The notes under the pieces are model-generated. The model was given only the letters and a program-made list of their open reading frames with translations. It was not told the DNA's origin and searched no databases. Positions 11,625 through 31,430 of a DNA stretch of 35,243 nucleotides are shown here, piece by piece. Numbering within the stretch: the stretch's first letter is position 1; each line of letters opens with the position of its first letter. Source of the stretch: a virus (Duplodnaviria > Heunggongvirae > Uroviricota > Caudoviricetes); IMG/VR virus record IMGVR_UViG_2737471821_000011, positions 1 to 35,243 of that record; one strand, written 5' to 3'. Both the position numbers and the translations under genes were made by a program.

Positions 11625-11955
11625 ATCAGCAGCAGAGCGCAAAGCCGCTCAGAGAGCCAGACAAGCTGCATCTGGTGTGCGTAAGCTGGAAATTGTGCTT
11701 GATGCTCAGGAAATTGAAATGCTGGAGCGTAACTGTGCCGCGCGTCGCCCAGGGCGTGCGCCTTACGAATTTGGTGAGTATATAGCGTTACTGATCCGCC
11801 AGGATGATGCACGCGTGCGCGGGCGTATAAAATCGATCAGTAGAAAACGTTGCGGTAAGTGCGGCGAGAGAGTTCCAGTTAATTCATGTCCGTGTAATGG
11901 TGACTCACAATGCTGGGTGACTAAAGGCTGGCATGAAACGAAATTAATAGTGTGA
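11617..11955 (+). CDS. Small basic protein with C-terminal Cys4 cluster (candidate DNA-binding regulator)
   Basis: 112 aa; basic N-terminus (RKLEIVLDAQEIEMLER) and CGKCGERVPVNSCPCNGDSQC. Last gene before the packaging genes; its stop codon lies inside a GTGACATGTCAC palindrome. Confidence 0.45.
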   Translation: MAKSAAERKAAQRARQAASGVRKLEIVLDAQEIEMLERNCAARRPGRAPYEFGEYIALLIRQDDARVRGRIKSISRKRCGKCGERVPVNSCPCNGDSQCWVTKGWHETKLIV

Positions 11956-11963
11956 CATGTCAC
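11952..11963. repeat. Perfect 12-bp palindrome GTGACATGTCAC (copy 1 of 3)
   Basis: Read directly; overlaps the stop codon of the 11617..11955 gene. Confidence 0.8.
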
Positions 11964-12004
11964 GAGTAGATTATGCATGATGAATTTGACGGGTTTTGAA
12001 TACT

Positions 12005-12030
12005 GCCGCCAACTATGGCGGCTTTATTTT
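12005..12030 (+). terminator. Intrinsic terminator immediately upstream of the packaging genes
   Basis: Hairpin GCCGCCA-ACTA-TGGCGGC followed by TTTATTTT. Confidence 0.7.
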
Positions 12031-12041
12031 GCATGGTACTA

Positions 12042-12056
12042 TTACCACAACGGTAA
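12042..12056. promoter_or_regulatory. Operator-like inverted repeat TTACC-ACAAC-GGTAA (plus imperfect copy TTACC-ACGGT-GGTTA at ~12060-12074)
   Basis: Perfect copy directly abutting a TACTAT -10-like hexamer (~12037-12042), 20-30 bp before the small terminase start. Confidence 0.55.
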
Positions 12057-12073
12057 CTATTACCACGGTGGTT

Positions 12074-28782: not shown

Positions 28783-28787
28783 ATTAA

Positions 28788-31262
28788 ATGAGACAGGAAT
28801 GTATACAAGCGGTCCAGCAGGTGGCGCAGCGCGCGTTAACGGCGCGAGAAATACAGAACATTGAAGACCGCATTTATCGAAATATGCGCTCCATTGCTCG
28901 TGATGACCCGATGTCGTGGCGACAACTTTCCGAATCAGAACGGTTGTATCGTGCAGCACAATTGGCATCTGAAGAATTACAGCGAGAAGCGGCATTAAAG
29001 AAACGTCGTGTGGCCCTCGCTATAGCCGCACGTCAGAGATTGGATAAATTTATCAATAGCTATCAAGGGGCTGATGGGAAACTTGGCGCTCTTAACCGTA
29101 CTATTGCTTTTAATGCAGACGGTAAATCGAATTTCCTCTCTGTTGAATCCAGAACAAAAGCCACTCGTGATTATGCATTGAGTCAATTGCAGGAGGCATT
29201 TGAAGCAGTTGATCCTCGCTTTTTTGGCCTGTTTGAAGATGAAGCGGGCGTGCGTGACCTGGTATATGAAATGCGAGGGCAAAATACTGGCAATGCTAAA
29301 GCAAGAAAAGGTGCTAAGGCGTGGAGAGAAGTGACAGATCTACTTCGCCGCCGGTTTAATGATGCTGGTGGGGACATTGGCTATCTCGAAAACTGGGGGA
29401 TCCCTCAACATCATTCTATGGAAAAGGTTGGGGCGGTATCAAAGGATAAGTGGGTTAGCGATGTTATAGGTAAGCTGGATCGCAAATATTATACCCGAGC
29501 CGATGGACAACTGATGAACGATGCCGAGTTGTCTGCATTTCTTGGAGAGGCTTATAACACGATCGCTACTGGTGGGCTGAATAAGCTTACTGATACCGGA
29601 ATGCGAATTTCCGGCGCACGTGCTAACCGTGGTAATGCATCACGACAGATACATTTCAAAGATGCAGATTCCTATCTCCAATATCAACAACTTTATGGCG
29701 ATCGCTCTCTATGGGAAATCATGGTCGGTCACCTGGAAGGTATCAGTAAAGATATTGCTCTGGTGGAAACATATGGTCCAAACCCCGATCATGTTTTCCG
29801 CTCTCTTCTTGATCAGGTGAAGGCAGAAACGGCAACAGCTAACCCGAGTAAAACCGGTAAAGTCGAGCGGCTGGCGAACAACACAGAGAATCTGTACAAC
29901 TTTATTTCCGGAAAGACACAGCCTGTAGCGAATCCGCACATCGCGCGATGGTCTGACAATATCCGCAACTGGCTGGTTGCCAGCAGACTCGGTTCCGCGT
30001 TGCTGTCATCGTTCTCTGATCTTGGGACCATGTATCTGTCTGCGAAGGTGACCAACCTTCCAATGAACCAGTTATTCCGCAACCAGCTTGAAGCTATGGA
30101 CCCAACGAACCGTACAGAACTTGCGCGGGCGCGCCGCGCTGGTCTGGCGATGGAATCTCTACTTGGCAGCGTTAACCGCTGGGCGATGGATAATATGGGG
30201 CCGTCAGTGTCTCGTTGGGCGGCAACGGCGGTAATGCGTGCCAGTGGGCTTACAGCATGGTCAGATGCGCACAAGCGCGCCTATGGCGTAACCATGATGG
30301 GAAGCCTGGGAGAAGTAGTGTCACGGACACCAGACCTTCGTAGCCTCGATGATTCTGATTTTCGCATCCTGAAAAGCAAAGGGATTACTGACACAGACTG
30401 GAGCGTATGGAAGCTGGCGCAACAGGAGGACTGGGGGAACGGCAATAATACGATGCTGACACCGGAAAGCATTATGCGTATCCCTGATTCAGCAGTTAAA
30501 CATCTTGGTGAGCCTGAACGCGTGAAATTTGAGGCAATGCGTAAACTGCTCGGTGCCGTAACTGAAGAAGTTGATATGGCTGTTATTACACCTGGAGCAC
30601 GTGAGCAGCTGATAACCGGTTCTGGTATTCAGCGTGGAACATGGAAAGGTGAATTAACGAGAAGTGTTTTCCTGTTTAAATCGTTCCCTATCTCGGTTGT
30701 TATGCGTCACTGGTCACGCGCTATGGGTATGCCGTCTGCTGGTGGTCGTGCGGCATATATTGCGACGTTTATTGTCAGTACGACCATTCTTGGCGCTTTG
30801 TCGCAGCAACTTAACGACCTTGCGTCTGGTCGTAATCCTCGAGAGATGACAGGAGAAGATGCCGCAAAATTCTGGCTTGGTGCTCTACTGAAAGGTGGTG
30901 GTCTTGGCCTTTACGGTGACTTTTTATTGTCAGATCACACTAGGTACGGAAGCGGCGCGCTGGCGTCGATGCTTGGCCCGGTAGCTGGTCTGGTTGATGA
31001 CGTAGTGAAGATTGCTCAGGGCATACCGTTAAATGCTGTGGAAGGGAAGAGTGAGCAGACTGGTGGTGATCTGGTGAAGCTGGGGAAAGGTTTGATGCCA
31101 GGTGCGAATCTCTGGTACTTAAAGGCGGCTCTCGATCATATGATCTTTAACCAGATGCAGGAGTATTTTTCACCAGGCTATTTGCGTAAAATGGAGCAAC
31201 GTTCGAAGAAAGAGTTTAATCAGACATACTGGTGGCGACCTCAGGATGTCACTCCGCAATAA
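28788..31262 (+). CDS. Large internal virion / ejection protein
   Basis: 824-aa ORF; last large gene of the late operon. Confidence 0.5.
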   Translation: MRQECIQAVQQVAQRALTAREIQNIEDRIYRNMRSIARDDPMSWRQLSESERLYRAAQLASEELQREAALKKRRVALAIAARQRLDKFINSYQGADGKLGALNRTIAFNADGKSNFLSVESRTKATRDYALSQLQEAFEAVDPRFFGLFEDEAGVRDLVYEMRGQNTGNAKARKGAKAWREVTDLLRRRFNDAGGDIGYLENWGIPQHHSMEKVGAVSKDKWVSDVIGKLDRKYYTRADGQLMNDAELSAFLGEAYNTIATGGLNKLTDTGMRISGARANRGNASRQIHFKDADSYLQYQQLYGDRSLWEIMVGHLEGISKDIALVETYGPNPDHVFRSLLDQVKAETATANPSKTGKVERLANNTENLYNFISGKTQPVANPHIARWSDNIRNWLVASRLGSALLSSFSDLGTMYLSAKVTNLPMNQLFRNQLEAMDPTNRTELARARRAGLAMESLLGSVNRWAMDNMGPSVSRWAATAVMRASGLTAWSDAHKRAYGVTMMGSLGEVVSRTPDLRSLDDSDFRILKSKGITDTDWSVWKLAQQEDWGNGNNTMLTPESIMRIPDSAVKHLGEPERVKFEAMRKLLGAVTEEVDMAVITPGAREQLITGSGIQRGTWKGELTRSVFLFKSFPISVVMRHWSRAMGMPSAGGRAAYIATFIVSTTILGALSQQLNDLASGRNPREMTGEDAAKFWLGALLKGGGLGLYGDFLLSDHTRYGSGALASMLGPVAGLVDDVVKIAQGIPLNAVEGKSEQTGGDLVKLGKGLMPGANLWYLKAALDHMIFNQMQEYFSPGYLRKMEQRSKKEFNQTYWWRPQDVTPQ

Positions 31263-31271
31263 GGATGAGAA

Positions 31272-31373
31272 ATGATTGCTTTTATTCTTGTTGTGTTTGC
31301 GCTTGTTGCACTTGGCGTTATGAACCGTAATGTATCATTGACGATGGCGAATTTGCTGTTGCAGTTATTTTGA
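31272..31373 (+). CDS. Possible 33-aa hydrophobic peptide
   Basis: ATG with AGGA RBS 10 nt after the preceding stop; translation MIAFILVVFALVALGVMNRNVSLTMANLLLQLF is a single predicted transmembrane helix. Below the track cut-off. Confidence 0.3.
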   Translation: MIAFILVVFALVALGVMNRNVSLTMANLLLQLF

Positions 31374-31418
31374 TATTATCTGGTGTAGCAGGGTACATAG
31401 GCTTGTCATAACGTGAGC

Positions 31419-31430
31419 GTGACATGTCAC
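31419..31430. repeat. Perfect 12-bp palindrome GTGACATGTCAC (copy 3 of 3)
   Basis: Read directly; immediately precedes the late-operon terminator. Confidence 0.8.

Follow-up and report, generated by a model that had tools for sequence, protein, structure and literature searches.

Three palindromes at transcription-unit ends of a Uetakevirus prophage are probable binding sites for a phage-encoded ribbon-helix-helix/zinc-ribbon protein

We investigated a perfect 12-nucleotide (nt) palindrome, GTGACATGTCAC, in a 35,243-nt stretch of DNA from a tailed virus of the Caudoviricetes (IMG/VR record IMGVR_UViG_2737471821_000011, positions 1 to 35,243; this whole stretch is called the window hereafter), which is a Uetakevirus (epsilon15/phiV10-like podovirus) prophage inserted beside guaA. 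The palindrome is a real, conserved, and non-random element. Cross-phage sequence comparison and a structural model indicate that its three copies are probably the cognate DNA-binding sites (operators) of a 112-amino-acid (aa) protein encoded at 11617-11955, which belongs to the epsilon15 gp49/N15 gp46 family (PHROG 536). By the same comparison, several temperate phage groups that are unrelated to one another conserve the gene for this protein and one copy of the site as a unit, with one to three further copies of the site elsewhere in the same genome.

Results

The palindrome and its three copies

An exact search of the whole window found three copies of GTGACATGTCAC (sites 1 to 3; Table 1), as a first-pass annotation of the sequence had claimed, and none in any of 100 dinucleotide-preserving shuffles of the window. 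Allowing two mismatches added a single match, at 17257, which is at chance level, and the relaxed pattern GTGACNNGTCAC gave no exact site in the window beyond the three. The true repeat unit is 14 nt long, TGTGACATGTCACG, and is oriented +, +, and − at sites 1 to 3, respectively; its genus-wide generalized form is YGTGACATGTCACR, i.e., YGTGAC-AT-GTCACR.

Each copy lies between the 3′ end of a gene and an intrinsic terminator, the latter neighborhood having been pointed out in the first-pass annotation and being borne out here by a GC-rich hairpin with a U-tract at 12005-12022 (+), 14212-14193 (−), and 31431-31448 (+). Read along the gene that ends there, the order at all three sites is stop codon, palindrome, hairpin, and U-tract. 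Site 1 is separated from its terminator by a gap of 41 nt. Site 2 begins 4 nt past its hairpin, which has a good U-tract for the minus-strand transcript only, with the palindrome following on the other side, and it ends 4 nt ahead of the stop codon of the minus-strand gene at 14233-14604. The 2.27 kb between sites 1 and 2 holds exactly the terS-terL unit, and none of the three sites is at a promoter in this phage.

Linkage of the site to the PHROG 536 gene across phage groups

Using tblastn, we found homologs of the 112-aa protein in phages of quite different types, in which the arms GTGAC-NN-GTCAC (GTGACNNGTCAC) lie over or next to the homolog's stop codon (G-TGA-C), with a central dinucleotide that differs. 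The stop-codon site reads (i) GTGAC-TG-GTCAC at gp46 of the telomere phage N15 (35% identity), (ii) GTGAC-GC-GTCAC at gp14 of the P2-like Yersinia phage vB_YenM_56.17 (43-44% identity for Yersinia P2-like homologs), and (iii) GTGAC-CT-GTCAC at gene 31, beside xis/int, of the Pantoea myovirus AH07 (58-63% identity). NAR688 also carries a homolog with the site at its stop. With one representative genome per species, the palindrome stands at offset −1 from the stop in 15 of 20 loci, and the codon before the stop varies (GTG, CTG, ATG, CCG, TCG, TTG, and GCG) yet always ends in G, which argues for a constraint on the DNA and not on the peptide. A palindrome specified at 10 bases is expected by chance only ∼0.04 times per 40 kb. 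Furthermore, the genes flanking the family member differ among the phage groups, and the PHROG 536 gene is therefore the only constant partner of the site. The first-pass annotation had named the adjacent Cys4 protein as a candidate binder of the palindrome, and this suggestion is strongly supported by the presence of the arms over the family's stop codon in unrelated phages.

In the N15-like loci, the TG form is present at the stop in 49 of 49, a second TG copy lies 4.3-7.1 kb upstream in nearly all, and the loci that reach far enough mostly contain a third copy in reverse orientation (CA). In N15 itself, the sites are located at 28550, 33237, and 39269. One of them is at the gp46 stop, another is within the repA coding sequence, and the third, at the end of the repA operon, lies 53 nt past gene 33 and is centered ∼66 bp ahead of the point where the isrK/C4 antirepressor operon is predicted to begin. 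The three-site arrangement of N15 is conserved in ∼49 N15-like contigs. Because of the N15 site near the isrK/C4 operon, promoter-proximal regulation is possible in other lineages, and the association with terminators is not universal. In Vibrio phages, two to three copies are present near the gene and just upstream of terS. The central dinucleotide is largely lineage-typical: it is AT at all three Uetakevirus sites, TG/CA at the three N15-like sites, and GC at the stop-codon site of the Yersinia loci. A proteomics paper on telomere phages lists a "gp46", possibly the homolog, among lysogen proteins (PMC12042878).

Two further sets of IMG/VR contigs contain the sequence in other settings. Three contigs of another phage type, for which no complete-genome match was present in phage or E. 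coli collections, have two exact GTGACATGTCAC copies ∼5 kb apart, one in the 3′ part of a 150-aa open reading frame (ORF; peptide ...GRDMSHQ...) and the other after a terminator, 16 nt ahead of the ATG of a small ORF. In five high-GC contigs, the 14-mer lies within dense GTCAC(G)/GTGAC repeat arrays in the linker of DUF1376-like replication-organizer genes. These arrays look like origin iterons, and we rejected them as members of the same system, judging the iteron-array context to be unrelated and a different use of the pentamer.

Conservation within Uetakeviruses

The first-pass annotation had proposed looking for the 12-mer in related phages, and epsilon15, SPN1S, and Tyrion indeed keep the exact sequence at all three corresponding positions despite diverged intergenic flanks (in Tyrion, one of the three copies spans the record ends). 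All three sites are also present in the prophage of Escherichia coli ETEC1716, and phiV10 has two exact copies and a third, across its arbitrary record ends, that differs by one base (GTGACATGTTAC). In epsilon15, the TGA of site 3 is the stop codon of gp18. In the epsilon15 RefSeq record, sites for the repressor, IHF, RNase III, and integrase are annotated, but the palindrome is not.

Among 80 close IMG/VR relatives, the site is at the gene's stop codon (offset −1) in 75, and the pattern was not found in the 10-kb early region upstream of the gene. The ∼1.4 Mb of close-relative loci contain 129 pattern matches, 128 of them with an AT center, and all but two of the 129 are either at the stop codon or 2.2-2.5 kb downstream. 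Of 79 close relatives, 53 retain an intact site 2, 13 show a single mismatch in it, and another 13 have it replaced. The 13 one-base variants amount to three independent mutations; the 13 replacements consist of different cargo from the terL stop onward, with both the terminator and site 2 gone.

Two observations concern individual members. In several relatives (four IMG/VR loci and two genome loci), a promoter bearing a perfect LexA box (TACTGT-N8-ACAGTA) comes after the palindrome at the gene's stop; in one of the IMG/VR loci, this promoter expresses a UmuD-like gene, which constitutes an SOS-controlled moron inserted at the junction. SPN1S has a one-mismatch copy at 26722 (GTGACATGTCAT) that overlaps the end of the Rz gene, where the lysis operon ends, and that may be a fourth site in the Salmonella members.

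The 112-aa protein

We modeled the protein as a monomer with AlphaFold2 from a 57-sequence alignment (mean pLDDT, 90.7). The model shows a basic helix at residues 5-19, an extended stretch (22-29), a pair of helices (30-42 and 52-75), a Cys-rich knuckle spanning 79-99, and one last helix. It contains the strand-helix-helix fold of ∼45 residues that characterizes the ribbon-helix-helix (RHH) superfamily, and we confidently assign to the protein a predicted architecture of an N-terminal basic helix, an RHH domain, and a C-terminal Cys-rich zinc ribbon. The DNA-binding fold of the model fits the role of binder of the palindrome, the binding itself being predicted. Residues R8, R13, E54, L59, C79, C82, P87, G95, and C99 are invariant or nearly so.

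Sequence searches were less informative. No Pfam family matched the protein at E ≤ 0.01, with only noise at E ≤ 10; no curated RHH family among the Pfam and NCBIfam models gave a qualifying match; and neither the PDB sequence search nor PADLOC returned anything useful or any match, respectively. A weak NCBIfam match was obtained to the LexA-regulated protein PRK11675 (E = 0.045; 14 bits vs a cutoff of 62). The PHROG 536 family is labeled "transcriptional regulator" and is small, with 156 clusters at 50% identity.

Comparison of the homologs with their sites suggests a parallel between the helix and the arms, and between the strand and the center: the N-terminal basic helix is conserved alongside the arms, and the β-strand residues vary by lineage alongside the center. 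RHH proteins form, as dimers, an antiparallel β-ribbon that enters the major groove at a repeated or palindromic site; the palindrome here would suit a symmetric dimer as well as two dimers.

Genomic context

The window is 99.8% identical, over the 4 kb queried, to the ETEC1716 prophage, and the isolated phages closest to it are ZX5 and phiV10; the reported integration site of ZX5 is the 3′ end of guaA (PMC9782041). The early-right operon includes the replication genes, Ead/Ea22, and NinX and ends with the RHH/zinc-ribbon gene. Downstream of this gene are the terS-terL unit, a minus-strand moron block, the portal-to-tail operon, and a convergent minus-strand operon. The moron block, located between terL and the portal operon, holds the Phage_gp49_66 gene and a tRNA-Arg (anticodon TCT) at 14804-14880 (−).

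TTACC-N5/6-GGTAA palindromes are present in the window at 7253, 12040-12066, 15213, 32416, and 33863 (also at 7650, 15275, and 33913), and their positions match prophage-repressor sites annotated in the epsilon15 record, which lie upstream of terS, the portal operon, and the tail fiber gene, as well as in the immunity region. This pattern suggests that each late unit may have its own repressor-controlled promoter.

Ahead of site 3, the small ORF (31272-31411 region) is cut to 33 aa by the loss of one A (AAA to AA, near 31330) when compared with phiV10p21 and the SPN1S counterpart. The ETEC1716 prophage has a 98-aa ORF, a different gene, between the last tail gene and site 3 (33058 in that prophage), and this slot is therefore a cargo hot spot. 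On the convergent side, Rfam identifies a C4 antisense RNA (33252-33335) and an isrK RNA (33360-33436), both on the minus strand and directly upstream of the BRO-N antirepressor gene. Together these form a P1/N15-type anti-immunity module (immI/immA-like), and an isrK and C4 pair is also present in N15 at 28301-28489.

Table 1. Positions of the palindromes and of neighboring features in the window
Feature	Position	Strand	Remarks
RHH/zinc-ribbon protein gene	11617..11955	+	112 aa; epsilon15 gp49/N15 gp46 family, PHROG 536
Palindrome site 1	11952..11963		GTGACATGTCAC; its TGA (11953-11955) is the stop codon of ORF 11617-11955
Intrinsic terminator	12005..12022	+	Ends early-right operon, ahead of terS; 7-bp stem with 6 GC pairs, followed by TTTATTTT
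Hairpin common to terL (+) and minus-strand moron	14193..14212		Located after terL
Palindrome site 2	14217..14228		Between the hairpin downstream of terL and the stop of the minus-strand Phage_gp49_66 gene
Phage_gp49_66 family gene (moron)	14233..14604	−	PF13876, E = 8.6e-35
Small membrane-protein ORF ahead of site 3	31272..31373	+	Shortened by 1-nt deletion
Palindrome site 3	31419..31430		End of structural (late) operon; abuts terminator common to the convergent antirepressor operon
Late-operon terminator	31431..31448	+	Directly 3′ of site 3; stop of convergent gene 31454-31687 (−) just beyond
BRO-N antirepressor gene	32493-33218	−	Convergent operon headed by isrK and C4 RNAs

Discussion

A possible role at operon boundaries

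If the palindromes are operators of the 112-aa protein, the protein would be expressed from the gene that closes the early-right operon, and its dimers, or a pair of dimers, would occupy YGTGAC-AT-GTCACR. The bound protein could then act on transcription at operon boundaries, as a roadblock, as an insulator, or by bridging sites; alternatively, it might bridge or loop sites 1 and 2 around terS-terL. Binding, stoichiometry, and physiological effect are all things that we infer. Our guess is a boundary function (roadblock or insulation against read-through), which we favor because the sites are not at promoters and are all at the 3′ ends of transcription units, and because the late units seemingly have their own promoters. 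The first-pass annotation had offered modulation of termination or read-through as one possibility; the link to terminators on which it rests holds in the Uetakeviruses but not in the N15-like phages, where sites lie in repA and upstream of a promoter.

Several points weigh against the assignment of the palindromes to this protein, or against a simple role for them. First, site 2 is dispensable, being mutated or lost in about one-third of the close relatives. Second, no such site lies within 7 kb of the Aeromonas homologs (31% identity). Third, the β-strand does not track the AT and CT centers, as one locus has the strand of the window yet a CT center, and the Vibrio phages have mixed centers within one genome; co-evolution of protein and center is therefore conjectural. 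Finally, the sites are not at promoters, so that a classical repressor or activator role is a misfit for sites 2 and 3, and the usefulness of a roadblock upstream of an already strong terminator is not obvious from simple geometry.

Alternative explanations

It is conceivable, but rather unlikely, that the protein and its matS-like sites constitute a phage-encoded, MatP-like DNA-organizing system and not a conventional transcription factor. RHH dimers at a few dispersed sites would then bridge or insulate domains of a replicating phage or plasmid-prophage genome, or the sites might be places where host SMC-type loop extruders (MukBEF, Wadjet-like defenses) are unloaded or blocked.

We consider it unlikely that a host protein, most obviously MatP, binds the palindromes as matS-like sites, such that the phage protein would be irrelevant and the phage DNA would be tethered or organized, or MukBEF interfered with. 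The arms GTGAC/GTCAC are identical to those of the matS consensus GTGACRNYGTCAC (PMC6907758), an identity that the first-pass annotation overlooked in its list of known sites, and MatP binds matS through an RHH domain (PMC12756933). However, the spacer has 2 nt instead of 3 in all sites of all lineages, and the 13-bp matS (GTGACNNNGTCAC) does not occur in the window even at one mismatch. Moreover, there is no reason why phages that are unrelated should keep a host factor's site fixed over the stop of a single phage gene family.

The same low probability applies to an RNA element, in which the motif would form a short hairpin (GUGA-CNNG-UCAC) in the 3′ untranslated region (UTR), before the terminator hairpin, and would affect the stability or processing of the mRNA 3′ end or translation termination at a weak UGA-C stop. 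Transcripts carry the motif between stop codon and terminator at each of the three sites, a tetraloop hairpin of 4-5 bp is present in the minimum-free-energy fold at sites 1 and 2, and the two variable central bases would lie in the loop. On the other hand, this hairpin is very weak and absent from the fold of site 3, and the arm sequence is invariant, without compensatory changes, even at sites off stop codons. Furthermore, the N15 sites in the repA coding sequence and upstream of a promoter are not 3′ UTRs, and the linked protein has a double-stranded-DNA-binding fold.

More doubtful still is a signal for recombination or mosaicism, whereby the palindrome would be a short conserved linker, or a nuclease or recombinase target, for the exchange of modules and morons. 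The first-pass annotation had proposed a recombination or endonuclease target marking module junctions, and one aspect of this proposal agrees with the data: each site class in the IMG/VR loci has one conserved and one highly variable flank, and the cargo beside site 3 differs between the ETEC1716 prophage and the window. However, the cargo has no second bounding copy, and in the 13 relatives with replaced cargo the replacement begins at the terL stop and removes both terminator and site; the breakpoint is therefore not the motif, and support for such a target is weak at best. In addition, neither Pfam nor the model reveals a nuclease or recombinase domain in the RHH/zinc-ribbon protein, and lineage-specific centers with constant arms suit recognition by a protein better than microhomology.

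Finally, it is very unlikely that site 1 belongs to a late switch of the Q type (regulator gene, a promoter that overlaps the site, short leader, terminator, and terminase genes) with sites 2 and 3 secondary, since the promoter-like GTGACA-18-CATGAT from 11952, with a strong terminator ∼25 nt farther on and terS after that, and the Q-like position of the gene as last of the early operon are offset by (i) a right flank of site 1 that is not conserved, the ribosome-binding site and ATG of the next gene following directly in many relatives, (ii) a weak −10 and an overall promoter match of 9/12, (iii) the repressor operators, and hence separate promoters, of epsilon15 ahead of terS, gp3, and the tail fiber gene, the same TTACC...GGTAA motifs being present in the window, and (iv) the lack of a promoter-like partner at sites 2 and 3.

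Novelty and significance

We found no mention of the 12-mer and no study of the function of epsilon15 gp49 or N15 gp46 in the literature searched, which did not extend to the older subscription literature; the ZX5 paper covers the repressor, antirepressor, and integrase only (PMC9782041). The reading that suits the palindromes and the protein best is a regulator-operator pair that is new, belongs to a known general type, and is unusual in its arrangement. What is unusual is that the operator lies in the regulator's own stop codon across unrelated phages, that other copies stand beside terminators, and that the half-sites are those of matS. If the pairing is true, it would assign a DNA target to PHROG 536, a conserved "hypothetical protein/transcriptional regulator" family that extends over Uetakeviruses, telomere phages, P2-like phages, and others (∼156 clusters). 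The identity of the half-sites with matS may reflect either convergence of phage and host RHH proteins or an engagement of the host Ter and MukBEF machinery by the phage sites. The pairing is testable in the well-studied phages epsilon15, phiV10, and N15.

Comparison with known systems

Several families of known sites can be set aside. The P2 Ogr/Delta activators are Cys4 zinc-finger proteins of ∼70-90 aa that bind TGT-N12-ACA near −55 of late promoters; we rejected them on the basis of the RHH and zinc-ribbon fold, the different sequence and spacing of the site, and its location, which is not at −55 of a promoter. CRP and FNR recognize TGTGA-N6-TCACA and TTGAT-N4-ATCAA, respectively, and were rejected, the gap between GTGA and TCAC being 4 nt here vs 6 nt for CRP; LexA was rejected on spacing and context. 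The exclusion of CRP and LexA by the first-pass annotation was thus correct.

The arrangement resembles lambda Q/qut in that the regulator is encoded last in the early operon, its cis site is immediately downstream and co-inherited, and a terminator precedes the terminase genes. It differs in having no conserved promoter around the site, a variable downstream flank, another fold, and late units that seemingly have their own repressor-controlled promoters. A lambda Q-type module was therefore rejected, with only a 9/12 promoter-like match at site 1 and a downstream flank that is not conserved.

The MatP/matS system shares its arms with the phage palindrome, but the sites differ in length: E. 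coli matS has a 3-nt spacer (RNY) and measures 13 bp, the phage site a 2-nt spacer and 12 bp. Likewise, MatP consists of a four-helix bundle, a central RHH domain, and a coiled coil, whereas the phage protein lacks the bundle and the coiled coil and has a zinc ribbon. Its structural match to MatP is no better than that to other RHH proteins, and hhalign with a MatP sequence gave a probability of 0.1 and no similarity beyond the common fold, a result that we take as a lead only. Membership in MatP/matS thus fails on both site length and protein architecture.

A binding site that overlaps the coding end of its own regulator also occurs in lacI-O3, a likeness that we offer as an analogy only; in work ascribed to Abo et al. 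in 2000, that arrangement was reportedly considered capable of roadblock-type autoregulation. The phage and plasmid RHH regulators (P22 Arc and Mnt, CopG, omega, and the antitoxins MazE, TacA, KacA, and ParD) have operators that overlap the promoters they repress, usually their own, and these families lack the extra basic N-terminal helix and the C-terminal zinc ribbon of the phage protein, whose putative sites are instead located at its own stop codon and at the 3′ ends of operons.

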